Shown here in pieces: positions 3,723-55,269 of a stretch of DNA of 64,000 nucleotides. The number at the start of each line of letters is the position of its first letter. Positions within the stretch are counted from its first letter, which is position 1. The stretch spans positions 259 through 64,258 of the IMG/VR virus record IMGVR_UViG_3300038549_000009, one strand, 5' to 3'. The notes under the pieces were generated by a model. It made no database searches. It saw nothing but the letters and a program-made list of their open reading frames with translations, and was not told where the DNA came from. The stretch comes from a virus (Duplodnaviria; Caudoviricetes). The translations under genes were made by a program, and so were the position numbers.

Positions 3723-4013
3723 ATGCTCGAATTCGAGCGCACCAAATTCACACGCGCGGTCAAGGAAAGCGGCCTCACTAAGACCGAGCTGAGCCTCCTG
3801 TTCGAGGTCTCGCGCCAGCAGATTTACAATCTGATCGCCGGCTCGAGCCCCCGCAGCGGGGCCGCAACGAGGCGCGCGAACATCTACTCCAGCGCGATCT
3901 GCGCACTGATCGACAAGAAAGTGCTGCCGTTCCCCGGTGCCATCGTGGGGGCGAAGCGCTACTGGTCACTGGGGAAGCTCAAGACGAAGCTCTACGACCT
4001 AGCCCGGCCATAA
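3723..4013 (+). CDS. Cro/XRE-like helix-turn-helix protein
   Basis: GLTKTELSLLFEVSRQQIYNL HTH pattern; GGAG RBS. Confidence 0.7.
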   Translation: MLEFERTKFTRAVKESGLTKTELSLLFEVSRQQIYNLIAGSSPRSGAATRRANIYSSAICALIDKKVLPFPGAIVGAKRYWSLGKLKTKLYDLARP

Positions 4014-4034
4014 CCTCGAGGCTCAGGGGAGGTC

Positions 4035-7554: not shown

Positions 7555-7745
7555 CTGCAAAGGTCTACAAGTTCCCGCTCTGCTACCGGCGCCGGATGAT
7601 CTACCAGCCGGCGCGCCTGCGCTGGTATTGCAAGACGTGCGGCAAGCTCATGCCGCATCGGGAGGAATTCACTCCGCCGCCCCCGGCGTTTTCGGACGCG
7701 CAATATAGCGCGACGATCGCCATGACGGACACTCCGATCTGGTAG
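7551..7745 (+). CDS. small zinc-ribbon-like protein
   Basis: WYCKTCG motif; ATGA coupling. Confidence 0.5.
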   Translation: MTAKVYKFPLCYRRRMIYQPARLRWYCKTCGKLMPHREEFTPPPPAFSDAQYSATIAMTDTPIW

Positions 7746-7814
7746 CGGGGGCAGGGATCGAACCTGCGACCGTCGGCGTATGAAGCCGCTGCTCTGCCTC
7801 TGAGCTACCCCGCG
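7740..7814 (-). tRNA. tRNA with CAT anticodon (Met; initiator-like acceptor stem)
   Basis: Cloverleaf: CGCGGGG/CCCCGCT acceptor, GCTC-AGAGGCA-GAGC D arm, TTCATAC loop, GCAGG-TTCGATC-CCTGC T arm, encoded ACCA. Confidence 0.92.
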
Positions 7815-7817
7815 CTA

Positions 7818-7890
7818 GAAAAAGAACCGGAACCTGTGACCGGGGGGAGGGGGAGGGCAGGCTCCGGTGTCAGCTTTTGACCGACACCGG
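7818..7890 (-). ncRNA. structured tRNA leader or small RNA ending in a terminator-like hairpin
   Basis: CCGGTGTCGG/CTGACACCGG hairpin overlaps ACCGGAGCCTG/CAGGTTCCGGT hairpin followed by TCTTTTT. Confidence 0.5.
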
Positions 7891-34575: not shown

Positions 34576-34823
34576 TATCTTCCCCCTTCGATGTTAGCCA
34601 CCGGTGTCGGTGTCTTGATCCACGTCTCGAGCCGATCCAGCGAGGCCCAACCCCCTTGCGGGCGCCCTATGTCAGCGGCCGCGAATGTGCGCAGCTCTTT
34701 GTCGCACTCCGACTTGAACAACGCGATTGCTTCAAGAACGGCTTGCAGCTCCGCCGTTCCCCGATACTGATGCAGTCTTGCCCTCAGCGCCGCCTGCTGC
34801 GCCTTGATTGTCCCCGGTTCCAT
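34575..34823 (-). CDS. hypothetical protein downstream of portal
   Basis: GGAGG RBS; small helical protein. Confidence 0.55.
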   Translation of the reverse strand: MEPGTIKAQQAALRARLHQYRGTAELQAVLEAIALFKSECDKELRTFAAADIGRPQGGWASLDRLETWIKTPTPVANIEGGR

Positions 34824-36780
34824 TCAATGCCTCCAGTAGTGTGTTGAGCACGTCCACGGTTGCGGACGCCGTGTTTTTGTTCGCCTGCGAGATGTTCTTC
34901 ACCGCCTCCGACAGCGTCTTGCGGATCGTCGCCTGTGCGGTCTGCGTCGCAAGTTGCTGCGCTTGCTGTTGCGCCCGCTCGCGCGCCGCGCGCTTCTGCA
35001 CGACGACGGCTTCGTCCTCGAGCAAATCTTCAGCGAGATCGCGCACCTTCAGCCGCTCCTCGACGAGGCGCCGTTCCTTGATGTGGTCCATCTGGCTCTC
35101 ATTGAGCGTCACGCTCAACTGATCCAGTTGCAGCGACCGAACTTCCTTGGCGATCAGCGAGGTCGAGCCGCGCGCGATCACCATGAAGTCGCCCTTGATC
35201 TCGGGCTTCGCGCGGAACTCCATGTTCCAGTCGTAGAGCGCGGTGATGGCGCTCGTCGTGAACCGGTCAAAGTTACGCACCACATCGCGGATCGGGAGCG
35301 CGGCGGCGCCCATAATCATCGACGCGCCACCCTGCGTGCGCAGCGCTTCGCTGCCACCTTTGGTCGGATCGCCCAGCGCGGGCGGCGGCAGCGCCGTCTC
35401 GAGGTCCATGAACTCCATGAATGTCTTGAGGACGTTCAGTAGTTCGGGTATGTGCGAGTTGACCGTCACGTCCTGCACCGCGCGATTGCCGGCGTTGGTC
35501 GGACTGCCCTTGCGGCCTTCCTTGATGTAGACCTTGAACGCGTGCGGGTCCCACGGTTGGCCCTCCATCAGGAGGTCCAAGTCCAGCTCGATCATCGGGC
35601 CGGACACGGCGCTGGCGTTGTCGAGCAACATCCGCGCCGCTTCGCAGATCGCCATTTGCGAATCGCGAATGATCTCCGGCAAACCGGAGCCGACCGTGTT
35701 GATATCGTCCTCGGTGTAGACGAACGTGTGGAACGGCGAAGTGGACTTGCGCGCCTCGGGTAGCCGCACCGCCTTAATGATGACATCCCCAATCATGGCG
35801 ACTTGCGCAGTGAACAGCTTGTCCAGCTCACTCGCAGGAACCGCCTCGCCGCTGGCGGTTAACTGCGCTCCGGTCACGCGGCCATAGCCCTCGACGTATT
35901 CGTATTTGTTCGTGGTGATGTCGGCGACGTTCTCGCGGTTAGACTTTTTGGAGCGCAGGTCTTTCTCCCAGTCCTCCTCCATGTAGTTGCCGGTCGGATA
36001 TTTCTTGAGCACCTCGTCGACCATCTCCGACATGAAATCCGGCCGGTCACGCAGCTCCGCGACAGACGCGCGCGACATCGGATTGCGCTCGAACTCCCAG
36101 TCGTATTGTTCCTTGCACTTGGCCGAGAGATCGGGATAGTAGTTCCAGACCGGGACGAACTCGAACATGGGCTTCAGCCGCGTGCTCGTCTCCGCCACGT
36201 AGGCGCCGTTGATATTCTTGAGCCACGTCCGCACCGTTTCTTTCAGGTGATACGGGCCCTTCATGACGCCCAAGCCGAAGATCACGCCGCTGAAGACAAC
36301 CTTGCGCGCGAGCGTGATGTATTCCATCTCGTCCAGCTCGTCCGCGATCTCCGTGCTCATTTTCTCCGCGCGCTCCTGCGCGATCAGCCGGACCTGCCGC
36401 TCGATCTCGTTATTCGTGGGAGTGTTGGGGACGACGGCCTTCTCCGTCGCGAGCTTGATCGCGGCGGCCGTATCTTCCTCGGAGAGATTGGGCACCTTGG
36501 TCGCCTCGACCGCCCAGTTCTTTTCGGACTGGGGGAACATCATCTCCATGATGCGGGCGACCGTGCCGATCGCCTTAACCCGCGTAGCCCGTGGATACGC
36601 GCGCGAGCCATCCTTGCGGAATTTCTTCTCGACCTCGGGATCGTAGTGCCCCTTGGTCTGCCGCAGATTCCGGAGCCACTGCTGCTCGACTTCGTAACGG
36701 TTTTTCTTGTAGGTGGCGAACGTCTGACGGAGGTTTACCCCCATCGAGTCCAGCAGCCTGCGGTCGGTAATCGTCGCCAT
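34732..36780 (-). CDS. portal protein
   Basis: follows TerL; G.G..KGP, YPD, G.GLP..IRD.Q, DNA...GP motifs. Confidence 0.85.
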   Translation of the reverse strand: MATITDRRLLDSMGVNLRQTFATYKKNRYEVEQQWLRNLRQTKGHYDPEVEKKFRKDGSRAYPRATRVKAIGTVARIMEMMFPQSEKNWAVEATKVPNLSEEDTAAAIKLATEKAVVPNTPTNNEIERQVRLIAQERAEKMSTEIADELDEMEYITLARKVVFSGVIFGLGVMKGPYHLKETVRTWLKNINGAYVAETSTRLKPMFEFVPVWNYYPDLSAKCKEQYDWEFERNPMSRASVAELRDRPDFMSEMVDEVLKKYPTGNYMEEDWEKDLRSKKSNRENVADITTNKYEYVEGYGRVTGAQLTASGEAVPASELDKLFTAQVAMIGDVIIKAVRLPEARKSTSPFHTFVYTEDDINTVGSGLPEIIRDSQMAICEAARMLLDNASAVSGPMIELDLDLLMEGQPWDPHAFKVYIKEGRKGSPTNAGNRAVQDVTVNSHIPELLNVLKTFMEFMDLETALPPPALGDPTKGGSEALRTQGGASMIMGAAALPIRDVVRNFDRFTTSAITALYDWNMEFRAKPEIKGDFMVIARGSTSLIAKEVRSLQLDQLSVTLNESQMDHIKERRLVEERLKVRDLAEDLLEDEAVVVQKRAARERAQQQAQQLATQTAQATIRKTLSEAVKNISQANKNTASATVDVLNTLLEALNGTGDNQGAAGGAEGKTASVSGNGGAASRS

Positions 36781-36781
36781 C

Positions 36782-38206
36782 TCAGCTCCTCACATTGTAG
36801 CCGGGGTTACCCGCGAGCTGCGCCAAGACGCGGCGGCGGTAGTCCGCATCGTCGGCGGTCGTCACACCGGTGCGGAAGTGCATGTTCGCATACTCGTCCG
36901 CCTCGCAAACGTGGGAGAAGATGTTCTTCTCTGGCTTGTCCCGGTGTGCGTTTTGCAGACGTAGTTTCTCGTAATGATACCCCCCGGAGAGCCCCCGGAT
37001 CAAGTATCGGCAGCTTGGGTCGATCAGGCACCCGTCGTGCCGAGTGAGGAAGAACTCGGTCGCCTCGCGCCGCACCTTCGCGTCGTTGGTGTAGGCGAGG
37101 CGCACCGCGCGCCGGCTGATCTTCAGCCCCTTCACCAGTATGTCCACGCAGTTCTGCTCGGTCGTCTGCGAACCGTAGCCCCCGCTCGGGTCGCCCGTAA
37201 TGAAGATCGGGAGCCCCCGGAACTTCAGGTTGAGGAGCGGCCGGAGCTTGCGGTCGATGAAGGTCTCGAGCGCCATCGTCTCGTTCTCAAGCGTGATCGC
37301 CTCGGCGAACGTGAGGCTCCGCCCGCGCACGTCCTCCTGCTTGATGACTGCCGCAGGCGTCCTCCCGAAGTCCATCCCGACGACGATCGGGCGGGCCGGG
37401 TCCACGATCAGCGGTGATCTTGCGACGTGGCGCGGCTCGTCGAACTCGGGCTGCACTGGCTTGCCCGCGATCGAGCGGCCGGGGAGCCCGTGGATATACA
37501 TCCGGATGAAGTTCTCGCTCTTGCCCTTCATCATCGTGACGTAGTAGTCGCGCCCGCCCTTCAGGTTCTCCAGATTCTCCGCGTCCTTCGAGAGCCCGCT
37601 CGGCTGCTTGAACACCGCCCAACCGTTGTCCTGCACCGGCTCGTTCGTGTCCGGGTCCAATCCTTCGGCGAGCTGGAAACAGTAGGTGTCCTCGATCGGC
37701 GGGTTGGTGTCGCCCCACATCCCGTCCCATGCGCCGGGCATGTCATACCAGCGGCCGAGCCGCCCGTCGATACCGTCGACGATCTCGCGCTCCATCTCGC
37801 GCTGCTCGTTCAGCCATGCGAAGTTGATCTCGAGCGAGAGCAGGTTCTTCACGTCATCGGGATTGTCGAGCGCGCGGAACATGATCTCGCCCCGGATGTC
37901 GCCGATCTTCACGTAGTAAACCTTCTCGGTCGCGCGATACTCGCCGATCGAGCCGTTAGGGAACCAGTAGAAGAACGTCTTCATTGTCGTGTCGCGGAGC
38001 TGCGGGGTCGTGTTCCGCGTGATGATCGCGCGGCCATGCCGGAATCCGTCGGTCCAGTGCGGACGCTCCGCGAGCCGGCGCACGACCTCCACCGAACAGC
38101 CGGATGACTTGCCCGAGCCGAACGGCCCGGTTAGGAGGCGGCGCCGCGCGTTCGATTGCATGAAGCGCTCGATCGTGCGCGGCGGCTTGTAGGCGAGTTC
38201 CATCAA
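36782..38206 (-). CDS. terL: terminase large subunit
   Basis: GPFGSGKS Walker A, DTNPP, AEN..NL, GMDFG.TPA, GDPSG, SH...EY nuclease motifs. Confidence 0.92.
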   Translation of the reverse strand: MMELAYKPPRTIERFMQSNARRRLLTGPFGSGKSSGCSVEVVRRLAERPHWTDGFRHGRAIITRNTTPQLRDTTMKTFFYWFPNGSIGEYRATEKVYYVKIGDIRGEIMFRALDNPDDVKNLLSLEINFAWLNEQREMEREIVDGIDGRLGRWYDMPGAWDGMWGDTNPPIEDTYCFQLAEGLDPDTNEPVQDNGWAVFKQPSGLSKDAENLENLKGGRDYYVTMMKGKSENFIRMYIHGLPGRSIAGKPVQPEFDEPRHVARSPLIVDPARPIVVGMDFGRTPAAVIKQEDVRGRSLTFAEAITLENETMALETFIDRKLRPLLNLKFRGLPIFITGDPSGGYGSQTTEQNCVDILVKGLKISRRAVRLAYTNDAKVRREATEFFLTRHDGCLIDPSCRYLIRGLSGGYHYEKLRLQNAHRDKPEKNIFSHVCEADEYANMHFRTGVTTADDADYRRRVLAQLAGNPGYNVRS

Positions 38207-38463
38207 TCGTCCAGCGTGTCCGGGAAGATGTAGCGCCCGTGCGCGTTGGCGTGCGCGTCGCGCCGGCCGTTCCAGTATTCAGTCGCGCGCGTTGCCTGCA
38301 CGGACTGCGCCAAAGCCTTGTTCATCCACTCGGCCACGATCTGCCCAACTGCCGGGCCCATGCGGCCCCAGCGGAAGACGGCCGTGGCGAGCGTGCCGCG
38401 CGGGAGCTTGAAGCTAACGCGGACTTGCAGCCAGCCGTCGCGGTGTTCAAACGAGAGGTTCAT
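38203..38463 (-). CDS. hypothetical protein
   Basis: GGAGGG RBS; coupled to terL. Confidence 0.5.
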   Translation of the reverse strand: MNLSFEHRDGWLQVRVSFKLPRGTLATAVFRWGRMGPAVGQIVAEWMNKALAQSVQATRATEYWNGRRDAHANAHGRYIFPDTLDD

Positions 38464-38656
38464 GTTCCCTCCGCACTCCACGCCGCCCGTCCTCGAAGCC
38501 GTCGTGATACGCCTGCCGGCGCACCCGCTTCAACTCGTGTCGAAAGAAATGGTTAATCCGAGCCATCGCCTCGTCCGCGATGATCTCGTCCGCCTCGCGC
38601 TTCAAGAACCGATCGAGGTGCCACTCGTAAATAGCGTTCAGCATCCACTGGATCAT
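38447..38656 (-). CDS. hypothetical protein
   Basis: coupled ORF in the packaging module. Confidence 0.5.
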   Translation of the reverse strand: MIQWMLNAIYEWHLDRFLKREADEIIADEAMARINHFFRHELKRVRRQAYHDGFEDGRRGVRREHEPLV

Positions 38657-39222
38657 GTGCCCTCTCCCTTCACCGGTGTCACGTCGATCGCCGGGCGCTC
38701 CTCGCCCACGACGATAGTCGGTCGGCCGGCACCGGGGTCGCTGAAGATGATCTTCAGCGAGAACCCCGAGCCGCCTCCCGAGCCTGCCCCCCCTTCCCCA
38801 TCTTTTCCGGGATCAAGTCCCGCTACGCGCGAGTGCCACTTGATCGAATCCATTCTCACCGCCGGCGCTACGTCCGGGTCGGTCGCGAGCATGAACGCGT
38901 GCTCGAGCAGTTCTTCCGCTTGGAGCTTCGCCTTCGTCTTGAAGCTCAGGCCCTCGCTCACGATCACCGCGCGGTATCCCTTCACGAGCTTCGTGAAAGT
39001 GTCGTTCTGCAACAGCTTGGCACCCTGCTCCGGGGTGAGGCCGTAGTGCTCGAGGGTTTCCTCGGGCGTCTCGATCTGCATGGCCAGATCGAAAGGCAGC
39101 CGCGCCGGCCAGCCGTTGCGCTTGGCGATCGCCGCGAGCTGCACCTTCTCGGAATCCGCCCGGCCGGGGGCCTCCCCGCCCGCCGCCCGCATGAACCCGT
39201 CGAATGGTGACTCGGTCGCCAT
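38653..39222 (-). CDS. terS: terminase small subunit (putative)
   Basis: helical G.SF..KA...AE.LL and P.VR.D.IKW motifs; upstream of terL. Confidence 0.7.
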   Translation of the reverse strand: MATESPFDGFMRAAGGEAPGRADSEKVQLAAIAKRNGWPARLPFDLAMQIETPEETLEHYGLTPEQGAKLLQNDTFTKLVKGYRAVIVSEGLSFKTKAKLQAEELLEHAFMLATDPDVAPAVRMDSIKWHSRVAGLDPGKDGEGGAGSGGGSGFSLKIIFSDPGAGRPTIVVGEERPAIDVTPVKGEGT

Positions 39223-39228
39223 CAGTGC

Positions 39229-39257
39229 ATCCTACGGGGTTCTGCCGCGCCTGTCAA
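39229..39257 (-). promoter_or_regulatory. sigma70-type promoter, leaderless with terS
   Basis: TTGACA-N17-TAGGAT, ATG 6 nt downstream. Confidence 0.7.
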
Positions 39258-39262
39258 GTATT

Positions 39263-39979
39263 TCACTGCGTCAATTCCTTGACGGTATCGAGGAAGCCCT
39301 GCACCGCGCTGATCGGCACGGCGTAGCCCACGTTGTTAAATTCTTGACGCTCGATCATGATCGCCCGGTTGAGCCCGACGAGCACCCACCGTCCCTGCTG
39401 GTAGCCGAATAGGCCCCCACCGCTGTTCCCGGTGGACAGCCATGCGGTGTGCTGAATGAATGCCCCGCCTTGGCTCTGGACCAGCCCCATCGTCAACCAC
39501 TGCTGCCGGATCGCCCGGACGCGCGGGAACCCAACCGCGACCACGGGTTCGTCCTGCACCGGGTCGTAACCCAGCGGGGCACATGGACATTTCAGCGCGG
39601 GCGAGTGCACGAGCGCCAAGTCGAACCCCGGCCCGGTAGCGGCGACGGTCAGGGGAAACGTCCCCTCCCCGGTAACCACCTCGAGTGTCGTGGCATTCTC
39701 CGCCAGCTCTGCCCGGCTGACTGCATGGTAGACCGTCACGGCGTAGCCGGGGCGGATCACCACGATCGAAGCGCTGGCGACGAAGACGCCGCTGGCCGCG
39801 CGCTGGAACATCGGGAGCACGTAGCCCCGCGTGACGCTGAACTCGGCAGCCTGCGCCGGCCGGGGCCAGAATATCCACGCTGCGAACGCGGCTACCGCTA
39901 TCCACGTCAGGATGGTGGCCGCAGCCGCGATCGTCGCAGCTATGATGCTGAATCGGCTCGACTTGTCGTTGGTGTCCAT
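39263..39979 (-). CDS. membrane-anchored trypsin-like serine protease
   Basis: N-terminal TM; TVYHAV (His), DLALV (Asp), GNSGGGL (Ser). Confidence 0.85.
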   Translation of the reverse strand: MDTNDKSSRFSIIAATIAAAATILTWIAVAAFAAWIFWPRPAQAAEFSVTRGYVLPMFQRAASGVFVASASIVVIRPGYAVTVYHAVSRAELAENATTLEVVTGEGTFPLTVAATGPGFDLALVHSPALKCPCAPLGYDPVQDEPVVAVGFPRVRAIRQQWLTMGLVQSQGGAFIQHTAWLSTGNSGGGLFGYQQGRWVLVGLNRAIMIERQEFNNVGYAVPISAVQGFLDTVKELTQ

Positions 39980-39999
39980 GAAGCCTCCCGGTTTACGGT

Positions 40000-41330
40000 A
40001 AGTGGGTCCTGCCGTAGTGAGACTACGATGTCGGGCTCGAGTTCAATCGAACGTCGGCACTTGCGCGTAACTGCCGACGTTTTATGCCGGCGGCAGGCTA
40101 CATCCTGCCTCTAACCTCTTGACCGGCAGGGTATATCCTGCCCCGGCCGTATGCAGAACCGCGCTCGAGCTGTCGAGTTTCGTGTATGCGCGGGGGCTCG
40201 AATCACGACACATAAGCCGCCGGATGTGTCGCGAATGCTAGGCGTTAAAGGGTATAGCGCCCAAGACGTTAGGGGGTGTAACGAACTTGACACATTCTAA
40301 AAATGGCCTGTGCTATACGAGGGAGGGAACTGCTGGAATACCGCGCGCGCGTTCCCCCCAGCGCCGCCCCCTAACCGCCCGAAAGAATTCTTTTTTCTAG
40401 GCCGCGACCGCACGCCGCGCGACCGCATAACGCCGGGGGGTTAGGCGGCCCGGCAGCGGGGGGCGCGTCAAGCCCGCGTGCCCGATAGTCTTGATTCTAA
40501 AGGATAAACGGGCTAACAGCGCTCACGTTCCGGGCTCGAACGCGCGACAGCAGAACGGGAAAACTGTTAGGATTCAATGATCTTAGAGGATTAACTTCAG
40601 GAATGCCGTGAGGTCCGGCCCTCGTGGACACAAGTCCGGGCCGAGCTTGATCTCATGCCATCAAGGGCTTAGCGCAGCGCTCTTGTCAACTATCCATAAA
40701 TCGCTGATTTTAGAAGTGATAATTACGCGCGAGGGGCCGATTCTGATCGGTTAACGTGTTAGCACCCCGCTATACGTGAGCGGTCATACCTCCTAACTGC
40801 TAGGCGTGCTTCTAGGTTGTCCGAAAACCATACATATCGCGCTGATTTAACAGGATCATTTTCCCGCGAGCTTGTCACCGCGCGGGCCCGTCCTCCGATG
40901 TCACTTTAACTATGTGCTCTAAGATCACTGAATTTAAACGCCTAACGGTTTCGCGAGTGTCGCGAGCTTGACGCCGGGCCCGCTCGAGTGCGTGCACCGG
41001 TCCCGCTCGAGCGCTCGAGCCGGCCGCCGCGAGCCGGCAGGGCGTGCTAGAGGCGGGCGAGCCCAGTGCACCGGGACGCCGGCGGGCCGCGCGCTTGCGC
41101 CGTCCCCGCGCCACCTCGAGCGCGTGCCGGGGCGACTGCCGGACGCCGGCGCCGGGCCCGCGACTCGAGCGCGCCTCGAGCCCGCACGGGGGGCAAGCGC
41201 CGGGCCCGGCCGGGGGCGTGCTGGCATGATTCTTGTCCGACGAACGGCGGGGCCCGGAGCGTGTAAACGCTTGACGCCGGGGCCGGCGAGGCGGAGAATC
41301 GCGCACAGCGCGACGGGGGGCCCGGAGCGC
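40000..41330. other. non-coding divergent region, probable genome terminus/origin
   Basis: no credible ORF; AT-richer core; inverted and direct repeats; transcription diverges from it. Confidence 0.6.
41271..41299 (+). promoter_or_regulatory. early sigma70-type promoter
   Basis: TTGACG-N17-GAGAAT ahead of the first early gene. Confidence 0.55.
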
Positions 41331-41354
41331 ATCAACCTAGAGGAGCATGACATC

Positions 41355-41936
41355 ATGACAACCAAGCAGCAATACGAGACGCGCGAGGAATGGCTGCAAG
41401 CGTGCGTGGACCTTTTCCGGCCGGCATTCAAAGCGGCCGGGGAGCCGCTGCGCGAAACCATTCGCGCCTCGTGCGCATTCCCGCGCCGCTCGCGCGGTAA
41501 GGCCATCGGGCAACACTGGCCGGTCAACTACAGCACCGACAAGCACGACGAGATATTCATCTCGCCCGTGCTCGACGAGCCGCTGCGGGTGGCCGACGTG
41601 CTGGCGCACGAGTTGTGCCACACCCATCACTCGAACCATAAGGCGCGCACATTCGGCAAGCTCGCCCGCGCGCTCGAGCTTGAGGGCAAGCTCACGGCGA
41701 CCATCGGCGGGGAGAAATTTAAACAGCGCTTTGGAGCCGCCATCGCGAAGCTAGGGCCCTATCCGCACGGCGCGATGACCGAGCGCTCGCGGCCGACGGG
41801 CGGGCAGTCCACGCGCCTGCTCAAGTGCGAGTGCAAGGGGTGCGGCTACCTCGCACGCGTCACGCGTAAATGGATCGACGAGGCCGGCGCGCCCATCTGC
41901 CCGGCGTGCGAATCGTCGCTGGAGGTGGCCGGCTAG
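41355..41936 (+). CDS. SprT-like zincin metallopeptidase with C-terminal Zn ribbon
   Basis: HELCH...H, EIFISP, C.C..C and C..C; AGAGGAG RBS. Confidence 0.8.
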   Translation: MTTKQQYETREEWLQACVDLFRPAFKAAGEPLRETIRASCAFPRRSRGKAIGQHWPVNYSTDKHDEIFISPVLDEPLRVADVLAHELCHTHHSNHKARTFGKLARALELEGKLTATIGGEKFKQRFGAAIAKLGPYPHGAMTERSRPTGGQSTRLLKCECKGCGYLARVTRKWIDEAGAPICPACESSLEVAG

Positions 41937-41937
41937 T

Positions 41938-44216
41938 CCGACCTCGTGCGGCTCCTCCGGGGGCCGCACCGGGGCGCACTAACGCGCCTAACTGGAGGCA
42001 TCATGCAAATTGTGTTCATTGAATCCGACGCCGGCGGCTTCCGGCTAGACGCGGACGGGCGCACCGTCGTCGAGCGCGTCATCAAGCGCGTGCAAGGGCT
42101 AGGCGCCCCGCTGCCGTGCGGGATGTTCGCGCGCTATACCGTGACGCGCTTCGAGTCCGGCCGCGAGCTTGTCGAGGGCGTGCTGCAAGCGCGCCGCGCC
42201 GGCGGCCGGCGCTACTTCTCCGACCTGAGCGAGACCGCCGCACAGCGCCGGCTGCTCAGGTGGTCCGCGCGCATCCTGCGCGAGCGGGCCGGGGAGGTGG
42301 CGCATGATTAACTTCCGCGAAAAATCACTGGCCGAGCTTGCCTACATCATTGAGGATGCGAGTGAGGCCGCGCTTGCAATGCGCGGGCACGATGACCGGG
42401 CCGAGGCTAAATACCTCGACCAAGTCAACGACGCCAGCACCGAGCTTGCGCGCCGGCAGCGGGGCCGGGGCCGCCTGTATGGCCGCCGGCACGACGACGA
42501 GCGCACCGACCAGTTGAGCCCGGCCCCGGTAGTTTGGCCGCGCACGCCGGTCAAACGCGAGGGAGGGCAATCATGAGCACCGCACTTGCACAAGCGTATA
42601 GAGCCCGCGCCCGTCACATCGTCGAGCGCGATTGTCACGTCACGGCTACCGTGCGCGCGGCCGTCTACCACGTCATCACGCGCCTCGCCGACAAGCGCGC
42701 GCAATACTGGCGCATGGCCCGCGACGAGCGCCGGGCCCTTTGGCTAGGCGCGCGTGACGGCGTGCGGGGTAACCTCTGGCTGTATCGCGAGGCTACACGT
42801 AGCCGAGGAGGGACGGGCTCATGACGACATTTAAACGCCTAACCCCGCCACAGCGCGAGCTTGCCGCCGTGCTGCGCGCGCGGGGCGTAGTCATCCTGAC
42901 GCCTGAGAACGCGCGCCCGTTGCACGCGTTGAAGCGCCGGGGGCTCGCCCGCTTCGGGCTCGACGTGCACGGCCGGCGGGTGGCATTCCTGCGCCTGACG
43001 GCCGCACAGAAGCGCGCCAATGCCCGCGAGGACCGCGCGACCATTGCGGCCCTTGCCGCGTATGACGCGCTGCCGCTGGAGGGCGGCGGACTGCCGGCCG
43101 GCAAGGGCCGGGGGCGCAAGCTCACGCACGGCGAGGACGGCCGGCGAGTGTGGCCAGAATTCTATGGTAGCTTTTCCCCGGAAGGGGGCGTATAATCGCG
43201 ACTCCCTGCGCCTGCGCGAGCGGGTGCAGTGGGGCGCAATTCCGCGCCACACAACCTAGAGGAGCACTGGACCATGAGAACCGAAGCACAACGCGAAGCC
43301 GCACGCCGCGCGGTAGTCCGCGCGAATCTGCGCCTCGCGAAAGAACTGCTGGACGCGCTCAAGCGCAACCAGTCCGACCGCTGGACGCTACGGCGGCGCG
43401 TGCGCGCGCTGTTGCGGCGCGTGGAAAGGGAGGGCGTCTAACATGGCACGCTATACCGCACGCATCAGGCAATATGAAATCGAGGACACCGACGAGCTTT
43501 ATCGTCTGGAGCTTTCGACCTATAACAGCGAGGACGGCGCGCAAATCGAACTGACCGCCGACTACTTCGGGCCCGGCGGGCTGGACACCGCGCGCACCGT
43601 TGCGGCCGCGTGGGAAACGGGCGGCCAGTTTGTGCGCCTCATTCTCGCGTGCGTCCCGCTGCACGAGTTTTCCGGGCGCTTCGAGCCCCGATTCATTGGG
43701 GACGTGCCCGTCTACATCCGGAAGGGGGTGCAATCATGAGGGGCGGACTCGAATCAGCGGCGCGCTGGAACGCGCATTTTGCGCGCGAGGCCGACCGCAA
43801 CCGCGAGGCGACCATCCGGGCGCTGCGCACCCTAACGGCCGAGATACAGGCACGCTTCGCGCCCGAGCAGGCGCGTGAGGACGGCTTCTGGAGCGTCTGG
43901 TATGAATGGCACAAGACCGTGGAGGCCGTGCGCGTGCCGATGGGCAACCTCTACTATTACGCGCAAGGCGGCGGCTACGGGCCGAGCGCTGTATTCGAGG
44001 AATTTAAACGCATCGTCGAGCGCCGGCCCATCCCTGAGCCGCGCCCGGAGCCGGCCACGCGCGGCACGCATACCAAGCTCACCGGCAAGCTGGCGCGCGA
44101 CTTCCGCGCTGAGCTTGCGGGCCCGGCACCCGAGCAGGGAGCGCTAGACTTGCGGAAGGACTAGCCCGACCTCGTGCGGCTGGAGGGCCGCACCGGGGCG
44201 CGCTATTCGGCACGCC
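41938..44216 (+). repeat. three copies of a two-hairpin leader element (41938-41988, 43199-43248, 44166-44216)
   Basis: CGAC-stem1-GGGGCGC-loop-CGCC, each followed by a strong RBS. Confidence 0.7.
43168..43196 (+). promoter_or_regulatory. putative early promoter
   Basis: TAGCTT-N17-TATAAT. Confidence 0.5.
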
Positions 44217-44816
44217 ATAACCTAGAGGAGCACGACACCATGACAACGCAAGCAGTAAGGCACGACCCGCGCCGCGAAAGCGTGCAGCGCTTCGAGCAAG
44301 CCGAGCAGCACCGCGAAGGGCTGCGCTTCACGGGAGCACAGCGCGACGACAAGGTGCGCATCACGCGCTACCGCGACGGCGTCGTCGTCGAGATCATCGA
44401 GAAGCGCATCAAGGTCGACGAGCGCGTGCGCAAGGGGCGCAAGCGCCGCAAGACTATCGCCAATTTCCCGAGCAAGACCGCGAGGACGCGCGCCAAGCTC
44501 GCGCGGGAGCGGCGCAAAGCGGAAGCCGCCGCCGTGCTGGACGCGGCCGAGCGGGCCGGGCTGGAGAACGCGCGCGAGCCGTTCGACATCGAGACCGCTT
44601 ACGGCGTGGACGTGGACGGGCCCGCGCCGTTTAACTTCAACCTAGTCCGCTAGGGGGGCACATGAGCACGCTTCTATTGCTGCTATTCTTAGGGGCCGGG
44701 GCTCAGGCCGCCTCGCTCGTCTACAGCGAGCGGCCGGGCGACATCTCCAGCAACATCGCGCTGCTGGCGCTGTGGGCATACTTCATTACGCGCGAGATCA
44801 TCGAGCGGGGGGTGTC

Positions 44817-45152
44817 ATGAGCCCACAATACGCCTCGCCGCGCGTGGGGCAGTCCTGCGCGTGGGGCAAGATTCAGACGGCCGAGGAGATCGCGCCCGGT
44901 ATCGTGCGCATCACGACGGCCGGGCACGGGGGCTATTGGCTGAGCCCGGAGCGCCGGGCCGACATGCCGCTCCAGTATCGAGTCATCCGCACGTTCGCCG
45001 GCGGCCCGTGGTATGAGGAGGACTGTGACTGGAGCCTCGTCGTGCTATCGTTCCCGGAGCACTTCGACGCAAAGACGCGCCAAGCGGCGGCCGACACTGT
45101 CGAGTGGCTGGACGCTAACAGCGAGCGGTTTATCGGGAGGGCCAAGGCATGA
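44817..45152 (+). CDS. DUF7007-like protein
   Basis: WG..Q, PGI..I.TAGHGG..LS.ER, WYEEDC.W motifs. Confidence 0.7.
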   Translation: MSPQYASPRVGQSCAWGKIQTAEEIAPGIVRITTAGHGGYWLSPERRADMPLQYRVIRTFAGGPWYEEDCDWSLVVLSFPEHFDAKTRQAAADTVEWLDANSERFIGRAKA

Positions 45153-46602
45153 GCACCGCACATAAGCACGTCCCGGACGTGCGCATCGTGAACCACGGGA
45201 GCGTCGTGCTGCTGCATTTAAACACGCCGCCAGCGCGCGACTGGGCGCTCAACAATATCGACCCGGACGCGCCCCGCTTCGGCCGGGCCGTCGTCGTCGA
45301 GCCGCGCTACGTGGCGGCCATCGCCGACGGCATGAGCGCCGACGGGCTGGAGGTGCGCTAATGAGAACGCCGACACCATTCGACGGGCCGGGAGTCCTCC
45401 GGCCACTGGACCCACTGGCGCGCGCTATCGAGGCCGCCAGTGTCGAGGACGTAGCGCTCCTGATTGTCGCACTGGCGCGCGAGGCCCGCGCGCAAGCGGA
45501 CTATCCGGCGCGATTGGCCGAGCTTGAGGCGCGGGCCAGCGCCGCGCGGGGGGTAGCATGAAGATCATCGAGCAAATCGGCGACTACTCCGTGCGCGACG
45601 AACGCGACCCGGCACAGAGCACGCCGTTCTATTCTTACGGGGCGGTTACGTTGTGGGGCCCGGACGTGAACGGGCGCATCTGCCGGATGGGCAACTACCG
45701 CAACGACACGGGCCGCGCGCTCCAAGTCCTGCGGATGCTGGCCGGGGCACCATCATGAGGCCCGAGGACAAACTGCTGCGGGCCCTGTTCCATCCGGACC
45801 GGGACGCGCCGAGCGCGCGCTGCCCGGACTGCGGGATACCGACTGTGCCGGACCACGAGGGGTTGACCTACGAGGAACGGCTTTGTGAATCGTGCTACTT
45901 GCGCTGGAGCGAGGAGGACCATGACCGCTAGACTATCGAAGCATGAGCAGCACCGGCTGGCGCGCGGGGTATCGACGCCGTGCGCCGCATGGCATGGGAC
46001 GTTCGGAGGCCGCTGTTTAAATTGCGGCTACACGCCGGGCCGCATCGTCGAGGATGTCATCAAGGCGCGCCAAGCTGAGCGCGCGGAGGGAATAAAGTGA
46101 AACCGAGACCGACCACATGGGAAGCCCTGCGCCGCCTCGAGGCGCGCTGGATATCCGATAGCACGGCGCGCCGTATGGCGTTCCGGCTGCTGCGCGAGTC
46201 AACGCGTGACGCGGGCCGGGAATATGCCGAGGCCGTCTATCGGCTGGAGGTGCGCATTGTCGAGCGCGAGACGGCACGCAAGCGCGCGCTGCTGCGCCTG
46301 AAAATGAAGCTCACCCAACAGGCCGAGGTCGAGCGCGAGGCCATCCTGCGCCTCGAGGCGCGGTTCAGGCGCGAGACCGAGCGCGTCTGGACTGCCATCT
46401 TGCGCCTGAAGCGCGATTATCTACAGCGCACGGGCCGGGAGGCGTGGTAATGAATTACCACGAGACGCGAGACGCTGCGCTCCCTGAGCAGCAACGGCTT
46501 AACGCCCTAACGGGCAAGCCGCACGTCATCCGGCGCGTCGAGCACGGCGAGCGGGCCGGCTGGTATTACGTCGAGCCGTTTAAATCCGCTCCGAAAAATG
46601 TC

Positions 46603-46631
46603 TTTACTCCCATCATCTGAGCGCGTATAAT
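46603..46631 (+). promoter_or_regulatory. sigma70-type promoter
   Basis: TTTACT-N17-TATAAT upstream of 46657. Confidence 0.7.
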
Positions 46632-46656
46632 TCGCGCGGACTACTGGAGGCACACC

Positions 46657-46983
46657 ATGACTCAGCGCTTTGTGATCGGCTTCGGCTGCGAATATGACCG
46701 GGACGGCAACCCGCTTTATCTCTCGCACCGGGACGTTGCGCGCCTGATCGAGAAAATCGCTGCGCACATACGCGTGCCGGGCTACTCGCTCCGCTTCGGG
46801 CCGGGCGCATGGGAGACTGACGCCGGCACGCGCATCGTCGAGGACGGCGGCACCGTGGAATACATCGGGCCCGAGCACGACTACACGCTCCTGCGCGCCT
46901 TCGCCAGCGGCATCCGCGAGGAACTTCGGCAGGTCTGCGTTGTCTTTTATGCTCAGCCCGTGGTCTTTTTCGAGTATGTTTGA
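46657..46983 (+). CDS. SAM-lyase-like (DUF3574-type) protein, copy 1
   Basis: FG...GYS...G.W...G...E...A..I...L.Q.CV pattern. Confidence 0.6.
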   Translation: MTQRFVIGFGCEYDRDGNPLYLSHRDVARLIEKIAAHIRVPGYSLRFGPGAWETDAGTRIVEDGGTVEYIGPEHDYTLLRAFASGIREELRQVCVVFYAQPVVFFEYV

Positions 46984-47110
46984 GCCCGTCCGCCTTCTGA
47001 TTCTGGCCGGGCTCCTGCTATTCCTCACAGGGGCCCGGCTGTTTGTGTTTGCACTGAGGGAATCGCGCGAGCGCCCGGAAGACTCGCGCATAGACTGGGA
47101 GATTTAAACG

Positions 47111-47587
47111 ATGAAGCGAATCATGCCTTACGTGTTTTCCCTCGTGCTCCTGTTTGCGGCCGGACTGGCGCAAGCTGGCGGCGGCGCGGGTTTCTATCAG
47201 CACTTCAACGGCACCATCAAATTTTTCCCGCAAGGGAATAACGGGCAAGCGTGGACGTTCTTGGGCGAGTCCGGTGGCGGTGGCGGTGGCGGTGGCGGTG
47301 GCGGTGGCGGTGGCGGTGGCGGTGGCGGTGGCGGTGGCGGAAGCAAAGCCTCCGGCGGCAGCCAAGGCAACGGCAGCCATGCCAGCAAGGGCACGCGGAT
47401 ACTGCGCGCGGCTATCAAGGGCGCGATTGCAGCCGTGGCGATTTACGTGGTCTACTGCATCGTCACCGAGGACACGAGCGTCCCCGAGGACCAGCGGACT
47501 TGCAAGCGCCAGCCCGAGCCGGAGCCGATTGCTCTACAGCCCGTGCTGAACACCACGAACGTGTTCTCGCGCGACTGGAGTAAGTAA
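47111..47587 (+). CDS. exported protein with poly-Gly linker and TM anchor
   Basis: signal peptide ending AQA, 23 Gly, AIAAVAIYVVYCIV TM. Confidence 0.7.
   Translation: MKRIMPYVFSLVLLFAAGLAQAGGGAGFYQHFNGTIKFFPQGNNGQAWTFLGESGGGGGGGGGGGGGGGGGGGGGGGSKASGGSQGNGSHASKGTRILRAAIKGAIAAVAIYVVYCIVTEDTSVPEDQRTCKRQPEPEPIALQPVLNTTNVFSRDWSK
47273..47338 (+). repeat. perfect (GGTGGC)11 tandem repeat
   Basis: read directly. Confidence 0.95.
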
Positions 47588-47606
47588 GCAAGGACGTTGC
47601 CTGAAC

Positions 47607-47633
47607 GCGGCCGGTAAGGCCCGGCCGCTTTTT
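47607..47633 (+). terminator. intrinsic terminator-like hairpin
   Basis: GCGGCCGG-TAAGGC-CCGGCCGC-TTTTT. Confidence 0.6.
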
Positions 47634-47664
47634 GAGAACGCCCTAACACCCTAACTGGAGGCAC

Positions 47665-47988
47665 ATGCAGAAACTATACATTGTCAGATTTGGATTTTCG
47701 CGCGGACCGGCCGGCGAAGCGACCGGCATATCGCAAGGCGACGCGGCGAAGGCGGTCGAGCGCGTAGCGCGCCTGACCGGGCTCCCGCCTTACTCGCTCA
47801 AGTTCGAGCCGCGCGCGTGGTTCAACAACGAGGGCGCGGCCCACGTCGAGCACGCCGGCGAGGTGGAATTCATAGGCGGCAGCATCGAGACCGAGGCCCG
47901 GCGCTTCGCGACCGCGCTCCGTATGCAGTTGAAGCAGGAAGCGGTCACGATGCAGGTCCAGCCAGTCGAGTCGTTCAACTTTGTCTAG
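47665..47988 (+). CDS. SAM-lyase-like (DUF3574-type) protein, copy 2
   Basis: paralog of 46657-46983; AW...G...VE...LKQEAV. Confidence 0.6.
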   Translation: MQKLYIVRFGFSRGPAGEATGISQGDAAKAVERVARLTGLPPYSLKFEPRAWFNNEGAAHVEHAGEVEFIGGSIETEARRFATALRMQLKQEAVTMQVQPVESFNFV

Positions 47989-50900
47989 GAGCGTTTAAAT
48001 GAGCTACACGACCACCATGCGCAAGGACCGGGACGGTTGGCGCGCCGAGACGCGCATCACTCTCCCGGACGTGCAAGCGCACGCACTAACGCACCGGCCC
48101 GAGGAGAAGGGCGAGACGGTGCTCAGCCTCACGACATCCAAGCGGACGCGCGGCCTGTCCACGTTCGCGAGCGTAGCGTTCCACGCTGAGAACGGCTTCA
48201 CGACGCACGCGATGGGGATGGGGACCGGACTGGGCGACTACGGGCGCACGATTCTGCAATCCGGGGACCGCTGCACCGAGAAGGCCATCGCCCGCCTGCA
48301 CGCCGAGGCGCTGAACCTCGTGCCGACGGTGCTCGAGGCAGTGCGCGCGCACTACGCCGCGCAGAAAAAGGAACGCGCCCATGTTTGAGACCATGAGCAG
48401 CACCGTCAAGCAAGACACGACGCTGAGATTCACGAGCAAGCTGGAGCGTGACCGGAAGGCGCGCGAGCTTCGGAAGCAGGGCTACACCGTGGAATGCAAG
48501 ACGTGGGATTTTACGGACCTCGCGCGTGCCATTAGCTACGAGCTAACGGCCACGCGCACGATCAGGCGCGTTTAAATCCATCGTGGCAACCATCCACCTG
48601 AGCGACATCATCCGACGGGCCGGGGCGCTGGCGTGCGACGCGCGCACGAACGCCGACGGCTCGCACCATCTCCGGCTGCGCTTCGCTGGCGGCCGGACCG
48701 AGGACTCGACCACGGCGCCGGACGTGCGCCTCATTCTTCCACATCAGGAGGTAACATCGTGACGACTCTGGAAAAGGAAATGCTGCTAGACAAGATCGCC
48801 AGCCTACTAGGCGGCCGGATTGTCAAGGACCGAACGGACTGCGGCGGCGTCTTCGCCGACGTGGAGCTTGCCGACGGGGTGCGCTTTCACATGCACGCCG
48901 ACGGCTACGGTAACGAGGAGCGTATCACGTTCAGCGGGGACTGGCCGAGCTACACCAAGCCCGACGGGACCACGACCATCGTCATCCCGCGCGACGTGTG
49001 GATCGACAACCGGCAACTGGAATCCCCGAGCATCAGCGTGAGCTACACGCGCCCGGTCGAGCAGATCGTGAAGGACGTGCAGCGCCGGTTCCTGCCGGGC
49101 TACGCGCCCATCTGGCGCGCGGTCAAGCAGCGCGCCGAGGACCAGACGGCTTTTTACCGTAGGCAGCGCGAGACGGCCGAGCGCGTGGCGAGTCGCACTG
49201 GAGGCAAGGCGCGCGCCGGGTTCACTGAGGTGGACTATGGCTATGAGTTCGGCACGGCCAAGCTGCGCGGGGGCTACGGCGCGGAGCCGTTCGAGTTCGA
49301 GGTCACGCTCCGGGAAGTGAGCGAGGCCGACCTGCTGGACATCATCGACTTGCTGCGCGCGCGGTGGAGGAAACGTGTCAAAGTCGCGGCATAACGACAA
49401 GGATGTCATCATCCCGCCGGTCCTGCTGAAGCTCGACCGGCTGGACACCGAGGCCCTGCGCGAGCTACTGCACATGGTGCCGGGAGTGAATCACTGGGCG
49501 CTCGACCGGGCTACCGACGCAGCCATGCGCGAGGCGTTTAAATCCTACTGGCGGACGGGGAAGCTGACCGAGGCCAACATCTTCAACTTCAGGGGGGGCA
49601 AGTGAGCATACTGGACGAGATAAAATTCGCCGACGCGGGCACGGTGAGCCGCGCGCAACTGGAGCAGATCGCCGTCTGGATCGACAACATCGAGAAGCTG
49701 GACGCCGAGAACGGCTACACCGAGGCCAAAGAACTTTGGGCCCTGCTGTTCGACATCCGCAAAGTCGCGAGGGGGCAAGCATGATCGGCATATTTCACCG
49801 GTTCTTCCGCTCGCTCGTCGAGATCGAGCCGAGCGTCTCGCGCCGCCGGATTATGGGCTTCTCCGCCGGCCAACTTCGCGCGCTGCTGAGCGTCGCTCGC
49901 GTCTATCCGCCCGGACTATGGAGCGCAAGCGCCGACGCGCTGCGCAGTGTAGTGCTCCGCGCCTACGAGCAGGGGCAAATCTCCGACGAGCAAGTGGAGG
50001 ACATCAAGTGAAAGAGTCCGAGTTCGAGGAGTTCACGCGGCGGGTCTACGTCCGGGGAACGCGGGTCCTCGCCGCCATCTTCGCCGTCTTTTTACTGTGG
50101 GTCCTAACCGGGCCCCGATAACCGAGGAGCATACGCATGGCAAAGAGACTCATTCTTACAGTGCCTACGAAATTGACGCTTACGGAACTGGACATTCGCG
50201 AGGTATCCATCATCCTCGCCGCTCTGCGGCACTGGCAGAATAGCCCGCGCCGCTCGAGCGACGTGGAGGCTATCGCCGACAACGGCGGCGATGTCTGCCG
50301 GCTGGACGACGGGGAGATCGACGCGCTCTGCGAGAAGATTAACACCCGCGACATCTACGTCGTGACGGAGGAATCGTGCGGGTGAGCATCATCAACATCA
50401 TCATCCTGCTGGTGATCGGCACGCTGCTGGTCATGCCGGGGTGCATTTAAACGGAGGGTTTCATGCAGGCTATCTACCTGATTATTTTTTGCGCCGTGCT
50501 GGCGATGACCGGGCTCGCCATCGGAGACCGGCTCGACCAGCAAGAACGCGTAGCACTGACGGCGCCGACCGAGCGCCAACAAGCGCTGATCTGCTGGCAT
50601 GAATTCCAGTCCGGACGGCGGTCCACCACGGCAGACTGCCCGGCGCTATGAGCACCGAATACAAATACAAAAAGCTGAACGGCGACTGGCTGGAATGCGA
50701 CTCTTGCTCGTCCCTCGCTCCGCTCGCGACATTCGAGCAGCGGGATCATCGCACCGGCCAGAACGAAACGCGCCATTTGTGCGAGGTGTGCGCGAGCAGC
50801 TACATCGCCAATGCGGTGCAGTATCCGAGCCAGTATGAGAACGTGGCCCTCTATCAGGCCCTCGGGCGCTGCACGAACATAATCCTCGATGCCGTCACGA

Positions 50901-54918: not shown

Positions 54919-55269
54919 ATGAAGCGCTACACCCTGCCGCAGCTATTCGCCGCCCTCACGCTCGTCGCCATGTCCGCCTTCGCGCAGGCTCCCGCGCCGA
55001 AGCTCTACGCGCGCGCCGAGATGCCGCTCGCCGAAGTCAAGCTCTATCAGGAGACGTGCTCCGTCGGCGTCTTGATCGCTCGTATCGAGCCGGACTACCG
55101 CCCGCTGTGGAAGAACGGCGAAGCGCTCATGACCGATGGCAGCGGCGTCGATAAGCTCTGCTGGTTCGGCCTGCCCGTGTCGGAGTTCGGTCCGGGCTAT
55201 CTCGTGATATCCGAGCGCGGCGTCGAGGGCTTCATCCCGGCCGACCGATTCACCCACGAGGTCAAGTGA
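54919..55269 (+). CDS. exported hypothetical protein
   Basis: signal peptide ending AFA; two Cys. Confidence 0.6.
   Translation: MKRYTLPQLFAALTLVAMSAFAQAPAPKLYARAEMPLAEVKLYQETCSVGVLIARIEPDYRPLWKNGEALMTDGSGVDKLCWFGLPVSEFGPGYLVISERGVEGFIPADRFTHEVK

Follow-up and report, generated by a model that had tools for sequence, protein, structure and literature searches.

Phage RNA elements of several described kinds resemble the one analysed here, which is present in three copies (A, B and C) near the start of a rightward operon in a 64,000-nucleotide stretch of phage DNA (the window; bases 259-64258 of the 64,258-base IMG/VR record IMGVR_UViG_3300038549_000009, estimated to be 88% complete). According to PMC2839356 and PMC4122927, the promoter-early stem-loop (PeSL) cassettes of T4-like phages combine a stable stem-loop with a Shine-Dalgarno (SD) sequence, as does the present element, and are likewise repeated in ORFan-rich regions where genes have been inserted, deleted or replaced at the motif between related phages. 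PeSLs are described there in T4-like myoviruses only, and they contain an early promoter that matches the sigma-70 consensus and has an AT-rich region upstream of it; no such promoter was found in the three window copies. The invariant internal-loop core, the competing second hairpin and the strong RNA covariation of the family described below further distinguish it from PeSLs. The RNase III sites of the T7 early mRNA (R1.1 type; PMC1540722) likewise lie between the cistrons of a polycistronic early transcript, as hairpins that have internal loops and comprise ~two helical turns. There is no detectable sequence relation with these sites, and the element differs from them by two conserved 1x1 mismatches around a CG step, by its start at a stop codon and by an overlapping second hairpin; besides, the site proposed here is a predicted one. 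In PMC9378689, the put RNA of HK022 is a cis-acting RNA of ~60-70 nt with two stem-loops, located in early phage operons upstream of terminators, which resembles the situation found here. However, put is described there as two long stems arranged in a V with a triplex, present once per operon just after the promoter, whereas our element has a second stem of 5 bp, occurs 2-3 times per operon with every copy beginning at a stop codon, and is best supported as a single long helix. Intrinsic terminators share the GC-rich hairpin directly after a gene, but the U-tract is missing in 22 out of 22 copies of the element. Lambda-type nut sites (boxA plus boxB), finally, contain a small hairpin with a conserved loop that is read by the N protein, while the loop of the second hairpin (stem 2) is not conserved in our family. 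The role that we propose below for the family follows the idea of the PeSL cassettes, though the PeSL promoter is lacking.

The results confirm that the element is a real, conserved and uncatalogued phage RNA with strong covariation. We identified 22 copies in 13 records: the three in the window and 19 in 12 other uncultivated phage or metagenome contigs. One of these, metagenome contig L276, encodes an orthologue (68% identity) of the SprT-like protein of the window, and a copy of the motif, whose stems are different in sequence yet complementary, directly follows its stop codon. A degenerate pattern derived from four copies retrieved true copies in IMG/VR contigs L290, L293, L299 and L300, and two wider patterns added L310, L312, L313, L314, L315, L322, L428 and L429; other contigs retrieved by the patterns were rejected as false positives (L291/292/297/298, L294-296, L307-309/311/316/317/320/321/323 and L318). 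With a covariance model comprising the long helix (R2) the 22 copies scored 36-78 bits, and below them there was a gap down to ~23 bits. One to three copies are present per record, always clustered within 0.2-2.3 kb. The records that contain them have G+C contents of 43-65%, correspond to phages of ~37 kb and 64 kb plus one 103-kb contig, and represent at least three unrelated backbones, i.e. the 64-kb window phage together with L276, the ~37-kb group and a third group. The window DNA polymerase gave one weak partial hit against five motif-bearing records and is otherwise not shared, and an all-against-all blastp comparison revealed no protein family common to the 13 records, most of which are fragments.

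The earlier note on this DNA had proposed an uncharacterised cis RNA, and this proposal is borne out by the structure-preserving covariation presented below and by the outcome of the Rfam scans. When the whole window was scanned with Rfam 15 at gathering scores only a tRNA gene was detected, and when the region 41200-44400 was scanned at E values up to 5 four hits were obtained, the best of which (mir-7143) scored 23.7 bits against a gathering score of 90 and none of which fell meaningfully on the motif. The scans did not detect a CRISPR-repeat family either. Two motif copies used as blastn queries against GenBank phages produced chance matches in terminal repeats of Caulobacter phages, or none. 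In bacteria, the degenerate pattern matched 77 loci in 185,579 species genomes, mostly of high-G+C actinomycetes; since the best three (L342, L385 and L326) were partial matches that resemble coding sequence and scored a low 21-26 bits, we treated all 77 as chance. Exact 14-mer scans of IMG/VR yielded at least 120 matches each, and those listed were single chance matches. A second covariance model (R1) gave no convincing match on five records related through the large terminase subunit (TerL; best E value 0.127), and two contigs with more distant SprT relatives (L004 and L277, 45-47% identity) are without the motif. Being absent from Rfam and, as judged by blastn, from cultured-phage records, this structured RNA family is worth cataloguing, and the covariance model is ready for the annotation of phage metagenomes.

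Taken alone, energy considerations make a weak case for the element. The fold z-scores of copies A, B and C were -3.5, -1.9 and -1.1, respectively, so that copy A alone stands out, and hairpins are common in G+C-rich DNA: those with stems of at least 8 bp produced 107 hits on the plus and 125 on the minus strand of the window, several hits being one hairpin at different loop lengths. The case for the element therefore rests on its homologues and on covariation. We used two alignments, A3, a MAFFT alignment of 19 copies fitted to no structure, and A4, in which all 22 copies were fitted to the covariance model; as A4 leans towards the structure, the figures for A3 are the fairer ones. In A3, 96.0% of 372 cells were paired and ten of the 20 pairs had changed on both sides, in 47 cells. 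Its covariation score, 0.486, compares with 0.195 in shuffled alignments, none of 500 shuffles scoring as high, and sliding the partners by 1-3 columns reduced the score to 0.104 or less. The corresponding values for A4 were 95.8% of cells paired, double-sided changes in 12 of 20 pairs (58 cells) and a score of 0.497. In addition, RNAalifold independently predicted the same long helix.

The strand on which this structure exists can be deduced from the wobble pairs. In the A4 alignment of 22 copies, G.U accounts for 76 of the 432 pair cells; read from the opposite strand, these would be A.C mismatches. Model R1 scored the reverse strand of the window copies at 27, 15 and 13 bits as compared with 73-84 bits for the forward strand. 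Hence, the fold is a structure of the sense-strand RNA, or at least of a single strand, in agreement with the RNA-level structure that had been proposed. These data bear directly on the possibility that the element acts as DNA, be it as a site for recombination, as an operator of palindromic sequence (GGCGC-N6-GCGCC) or as a hairpin signal in single-stranded DNA. Stem 2 is indeed palindromic, its A-U variants are symmetric in DNA too, and the element is located at cassette boundaries. Nevertheless, besides the confinement of the G.U pairs to the sense strand, the apical loops are free and variation in the stems is compensated, which is unlike protein operators, and the protein comparison revealed no recombinase gene common to the 13 records, most of them fragments. 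We consider a DNA-level role very improbable.

The long helix has a characteristic anatomy. It is interrupted and comprises 15-21 bp (median 19), and in the 21 copies tabulated its base lies 0-6 nt from the upstream stop codon; the element itself begins at this codon or 2-4 nt behind it. The stop codon is part of the basal helix (4-6 bp), which is formed by pairing with the six bases that follow GGG(G/A)CGC; these pairs covary richly, with G-C, A-U, C-G and U-A all occurring at one position. Above it there is a 1x1 internal loop with a pyrimidine opposite C, and then an invariant C-G/G-C step enclosed between this loop and a second conserved 1x1 loop, in which A is opposite G, except for three copies with G opposite A and one each with A.A and G.G. 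The upper helix spans 12-16 bp and is closed by an apical loop that is free in sequence and length. The position that has the look of a bulged pyrimidine in the window copies is occupied by a pair (G-C, G.U or A-U) in 15 of the 22 copies and by a mismatch (C.C, C.U or similar) in seven. The conserved core, found in all copies or nearly so, comprises the CG step together with GGG, CGC and the 3' strand of stem 2. On the 3' side of stem 2 follow a G-poor leader of the (U/A)UAAC type, a strong SD sequence and the start codon. The two hairpins initially described are both conserved, but the two-hairpin model misses the long helix, which accounts for the greater part of the covariation and is in competition with stem 2.

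Stem 2 has the consensus G(G/A)CGC, 5-6 bases, GCG(C/U)C, and can be formed in 20 of the 22 copies; copy C and one other (G007a) contain a mismatch. Only its second pair varies (G-C, G.U or A-U), the A being paired with U in four out of four cases while U is the partner base in eight of the 22 copies. The sequence of its loop varies together with the stop-codon region with which it pairs in the long helix. Because stem 2 and the long helix need the same bases they cannot coexist, and formation of stem 2 requires that the base of the long helix is opened. Constrained folding placed the two states 0-8.5 kcal/mol apart (0.3 or less in six of the 21 copies evaluated), and the model thus predicts them to be nearly isoenergetic.

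These features raise the possibility of a bistable switch that senses ribosomes, in which a ribosome terminating at the buried stop codon opens the basal helix so that the freed 3' strand forms stem 2. The presence of the stop codon inside or next to the basal helix in every copy would fit such a switch, as would the conservation and similar energies of the two folds and the fact that the A of stem 2 always faces U, even though U is a minority partner. The two states would then differ in downstream translation, decay or nuclease access, thereby coupling the expression of neighbouring cassettes. However, masking of the first 15 nt, the part that a terminating ribosome would cover, left the SD sequence and start codon of 18 copies as accessible in the predictions as before; translational coupling through unmasking of the SD sequence was rejected on the same grounds. 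Also, no output of the switch is evident, and bistability may be a by-product of packing two modules into a short gap. Altogether we regard the switch as unlikely. The broader version of it, a new class of bistable intercistronic switch that reads upstream translation up to the stop codon, sets downstream fate through processing, decay or polymerase modification, and travels between unrelated phages as a cassette junction, seems improbable to us as well; if true, it would be an RNA-level counterpart of PeSLs and of integron cassette boundaries.

The genetic context of the copies is more uniform than the genes themselves. The stop codon is located in or beside the basal helix in 22 out of 22 copies (21 tabulated, that of L276 by sequence); the tabulated stop codons are TAG (13), TAA (six) and TGA (two). 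Conservation ends at the stop codon on the 5' side and at the start codon on the 3' side, each copy takes up the entire gap between its two genes, and many copies are flanked by unrelated genes. Comparison of gene orders places the motif (M) at the borders of exchanged cassettes. Thus, the clamp-like gene F3 is connected to gene F0 as F3-M-F0 in phage record G011, as F3-M-F5-F0 in G006 and G015, and through two motifs and two ORFans in G007 (F3-M-orf145-M-orf85-F0). Family F170 is located downstream of the motif in G009 and upstream of it in G014, and F21 is downstream in G016 and upstream in G011 and G007. The F5 proteins are 71-78% identical across phages with G+C contents of 43-60%. Similarly, L276 contains a homologue (42% identity, E value 3e-10) of the window gene 42821-43195 that is located upstream of the SprT gene, whereas in the window it is downstream. 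The protein encoded by 42821-43192 has no relative in IMG/VR, and neither Pfam nor PHROG gave a match for the genes located between the copies in the window. These arrangements support a role at cassette boundaries, as judged from comparative synteny, and the idea of a cassette-exchange handle put forward in the earlier note gains from them. The element marks the boundaries of cassettes that move between phages of very different G+C content and genome size, and it bears on the old question of how phage mosaicism can occur at exact gene boundaries without disturbing expression.

At the junction between F21 and F3 a positional analogue was observed (G011 36044-36119, minus strand, which is the same as L405 2222-2297; G007 ~15690-15730). 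It consists of two hairpins of unrelated sequence with a leader of the same CCTAACCTA type, and in G011 a promoter-like TTGACA-18-GATAGT lies ahead of it. The analogue may represent a second family of such junctions.

The explanation that we favour, with a probability of roughly 0.4, is that the element is a processing and stability element at cistron boundaries, i.e. an RNase III-type site, and in addition serves as a portable junction between cassettes. Typical substrates of E. coli RNase III comprise two helical turns; cleavage can be confined to one bond by internal loops, and it then leaves 3' hairpins that protect against exonucleases (PMC1540722). The ~two helical turns (15-21 bp) and the conserved Y.C and A.G 1x1 loops of our element fit this anatomy and are consistent with the RNase processing or stability element proposed in the earlier note. 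On the polycistronic early mRNA the element would mark a cistron boundary, and its two-turn helix with internal loops would be suited to nicking of one strand by bacterial RNase III. As a result of the nick, the upstream message would end in a protective 3' hairpin, and the downstream fragment could refold so that stem 2 forms a hairpin at its 5' end, ahead of a standard leader and ribosome binding site (RBS). Since such an element supplies every signal that is required between two genes, it could also serve as a portable junction for cassette exchange between phages. If this model is true, the element would be a compact, host-independent 'insulator' of ~70 nt, combining 3' stabiliser, 5' stabiliser, leader and RBS, that could be used as a part in synthetic biology.

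Several points weigh against this explanation. Recognition by RNase III is mostly independent of sequence and by itself would not demand such strong conservation of the invariant core, which hints at a more specific partner such as RNA polymerase (RNAP), the ribosome or a protein. For this reason the ribosome-sensing switch and a polymerase-binding RNA like put are kept as rivals. A double-strand cut, moreover, would detach the hairpin from the upstream message. With one covarying pair only, the RNA role of stem 2 is less secure than that of the long helix, and the evidence for cassette shuffling consists of an association with boundaries, not of recombination inside the motif.

Conservation of the core across phages of 43-65% G+C would fit a universally conserved partner such as RNAP, as expected for a processive antiterminator RNA of the HK022 put type, one of the roles suggested in the earlier note, in which a nascent two-hairpin RNA binds RNAP, leading to read-through of terminators and delayed-early expression. 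The copies are indeed located in the promoter-proximal 0.6-3 kb of long early operons, and canonical terminators that need to be read through are present downstream, in the window at 47607 (the genes continue beyond it) and in G013 at 5063-5046. According to PMC9378689, put RNAs are ~70 nt long, contain two bulged stem-loops and need no protein factor. On the other hand, an operon holds 2-3 copies in series, all of which begin exactly at stop codons, unlike the single promoter-proximal put of HK022, the 5-bp second hairpin is not a long stem, and the strongest covariation favours a single long helix that destroys the two-hairpin shape. The Rfam scans at E values up to 5 surfaced no put model. 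We judge an antiterminator to have a small chance only, similar to that of the switch; if either of them applied, this would be a new regulatory mechanism in an unstudied phage group.

The terminators just mentioned are also informative with respect to termination at the element itself. In the window, an intrinsic terminator with an 8-bp GC stem followed by TTTTT is present at 47607-47628 (plus strand), 3.4 kb downstream of copy C in the same operon, and the one in G013 is a canonical U-tract terminator too. No U-tract is present 3' of the helix in any of the 22 copies, the sequence that follows being GC-rich or G-poor, and a terminator scan listed none of copies A-C. As U-tract terminators occur downstream in the same operons, the motif is not an ordinary terminator. 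It could still be an attenuator or terminator without U-tract, like the stem-loop part of PeSLs, that insulates cassettes from upstream transcription. A very stable GC-rich hairpin (~-23 to -43 kcal/mol for the whole element) directly after a gene would suit this, and PeSL stem-loops reduced reporter expression to about the same extent as a strong terminator (PMC2839356). But the use of classical U-tract terminators by the same phages does not favour it, and no promoter was found after the three window hairpins, so that termination there would silence the whole replication operon. An attenuator function is thus quite improbable, and more so than the switch or the antiterminator. In a scan of the region 38000-48000 for sigma-70 promoters, plus-strand sites were found at 41271 and 46603 only, and none inside copies A-C. 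A phage RNA polymerase promoter was considered and rejected because the conserved parts vary too much in spacing and sequence; the PF00940 profile gave no match in the record, and its control likewise had no match anywhere.

Of the real intergenic gaps in the operon, the first three (41937-42002, 43196-43273 and 44165-44239) are taken up entirely by the three window copies. Copy A (41934-42005, plus strand, as are the other two; R1 79.3 bits, R2 51.5 bits) extends from the TAG stop codon of the SprT-like gene to the ATG at 42003. Its long helix (41934-41981) includes the upper stem 41946-41969 with a UCCG loop, and the alternative stem 2 at 41973-41988 is followed by the RBS GGAGG at ~41994-41998. 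Copy B (43193-43276; R1 84.2 bits, R2 44 bits) runs from a TAA stop codon to the ATG at 43274, with the long helix at 43194-43241, the upper stem at 43206-43229 with a GCGA loop, stem 2 at 43233-43248 and the RBS word AACCTAGAGGAGCA at 43253-43266. A TATAAT at 43191-43196 overlaps its stop codon, and an acceptable -35 sequence is absent. In a relative in run X2, whose contigs cover this copy only, copy B is identical except for a 1-nt deletion at 43250. Copy C (44162-44242; R1 73.1 bits, R2 59.5 bits), from a TAG stop codon to the ATG at 44240, contains the long helix at 44162-44205, the upper stem at 44174-44193 with a GGAG loop, a stem 2 variant of 7 bp at 44197-44216 and the RBS word at 44219-44232.

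The stem 1 sequences reported previously for these copies are exact (GTGCGGCTCC-TCCG-GGGGCCGCAC at 41946-41969, CTGCGCCTGC-GCGA-GCGGGTGCAG at 43206-43229 and GTGCGGCT-GGAG-GGCCGCAC at 44174-44193), and so are those of stem 2, namely GGCGC-6nt-GCGCC in A and B and GGCGCGC-TATTCG-GCACGCC, with one C.A mismatch, in C. CGAC and GGGG are present as described, CGAC 3-4 nt upstream of each stem and GGGG after one pyrimidine, but they are not flanks: in the minimum-energy folds the CGAC before stem 1 pairs with the GGGG after it as part of a longer helix that reaches back to the upstream stop codon, at the expense of stem 2. The 14-base RBS word AACCTAGAGGAGCA is exact at 41334, 43253 and 44219, as had been noted, although the copy at 41334 stands apart from the two-hairpin motif, and copy A carries CTAACTGGAGGCA instead. 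When up to three mismatches were allowed, AACCTAGAGGAGCA had nine matches in the window as compared with a mean of 2.4 in shuffled sequences, and none of 100 shuffles reached nine. A second conserved RBS word, (C)TAACTGGAGGCA, precedes three genes that follow gaps (41985-41999, 46640-46656 and 47645-47664), and AACCTAGAGGAGCA serves three others.

In copies A-C the reading frame of the upstream gene continues into that of the downstream gene, whose ATG lies 69, 81 and 78 nt, respectively, beyond the stop codon, and no further stop codon interrupts it, so that reading through a single stop would yield a fusion of the two adjacent proteins. Stop-codon read-through as a feature of the family was rejected, because the arrangement is in frame and free of stop codons in four of the 21 tabulated members, and several have a second in-frame stop codon three codons further on. 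The in-frame pattern of all three window copies is therefore probably a coincidence, with a chance of about 1 in 27.

The window has a G+C content of 64%, and its minus strand contains the structural genes, amongst which are those for TerL (36782-38203), a portal-type protein (34732-36777) and a 2,600-aa protein whose C-terminal part is DarB-like (15047-22849). An AT-rich divergent region (~40480-40970) precedes the rightward operon. The latter starts with a promoter-like TTGACG-17-GAGAAT (41271-41299, plus strand) detected by the promoter scan and extends on the plus strand from 41355 to ~63900 with tightly packed genes; it opens with ORFans and the SprT-like protein, followed by replication genes such as that for the DNA polymerase (55266-57242). 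Being located within the first 0.6-3 kb of this operon, downstream of the promoter-like site, the copies would be leaders of early genes, as suggested before. Cultured phages are distant: tblastn with TerL retrieved 28 GenBank records, each with less than 60% identity, a megablast search of GenBank phages for close relatives found none, and the sole blastn match amongst GenBank phages was an SprT gene fragment in a Microbacterium phage. The nearest IMG/VR relative (L245, TerL 97% identical) stops ~2.3 kb upstream of TerL and is without the early region.

The 5' leader of the operon (41271-41357, plus strand) comprises the promoter-like site, a GC hairpin (CGCGC-ACA-GCGCG), the RBS word at 41334-41347 and the ATG at 41355, so that 41300-41357 carries the leader half of the motif without the long hairpin. 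Positions 1-78 of L276, at the contig start, similarly contain TTGACG-17-GACAAT, a stem-2-like hairpin (GGCGCGC-TGATCG-GTGCGCC) and a CTTACTGGAG leader in front of the first gene. Two primary 5' ends thus carry a small GC hairpin plus leader, which suggests that the combination of such a hairpin with a G-poor leader and an SD sequence is a module in its own right.

At 3999-4036 (plus strand) TAGCCCGGCC is joined to ATAACCTCGAGG..ATG, i.e. motif-like ends without hairpins between them. This sequence scored 16.6 bits with R1 (E value 0.011), 47 central model positions being skipped, and may, as a weak candidate, be an 'empty' junction.

Some other features of the window were observed. Direct repeats containing CTCGAG are clustered at 40960-41230, with the AT-rich divergent region on one side and the early promoter-like site on the other, and may be operator or iteron-like sites; TTGACGCCGGG is present twice, at ~40963 and 41271. 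The tRNA gene (7743-7814, minus strand, Rfam score 58.1 bits) lies beside a strong hairpin (7864-7890) at a turn between plus- and minus-strand gene blocks. The second promoter-like site, TTTACT-17-TATAAT at 46603-46631 (ten of 12 matches), belongs to a short gap at 46618-46659, and its -10 sequence sits in the loop of a GCGCG/CGCGC hairpin. Finally, the 158-aa gene 47111-47587 contains six in-register copies of a GGT/GGC repeat (47272-47340); its glycine-rich product has a weak PHROG match to a virion structural protein.

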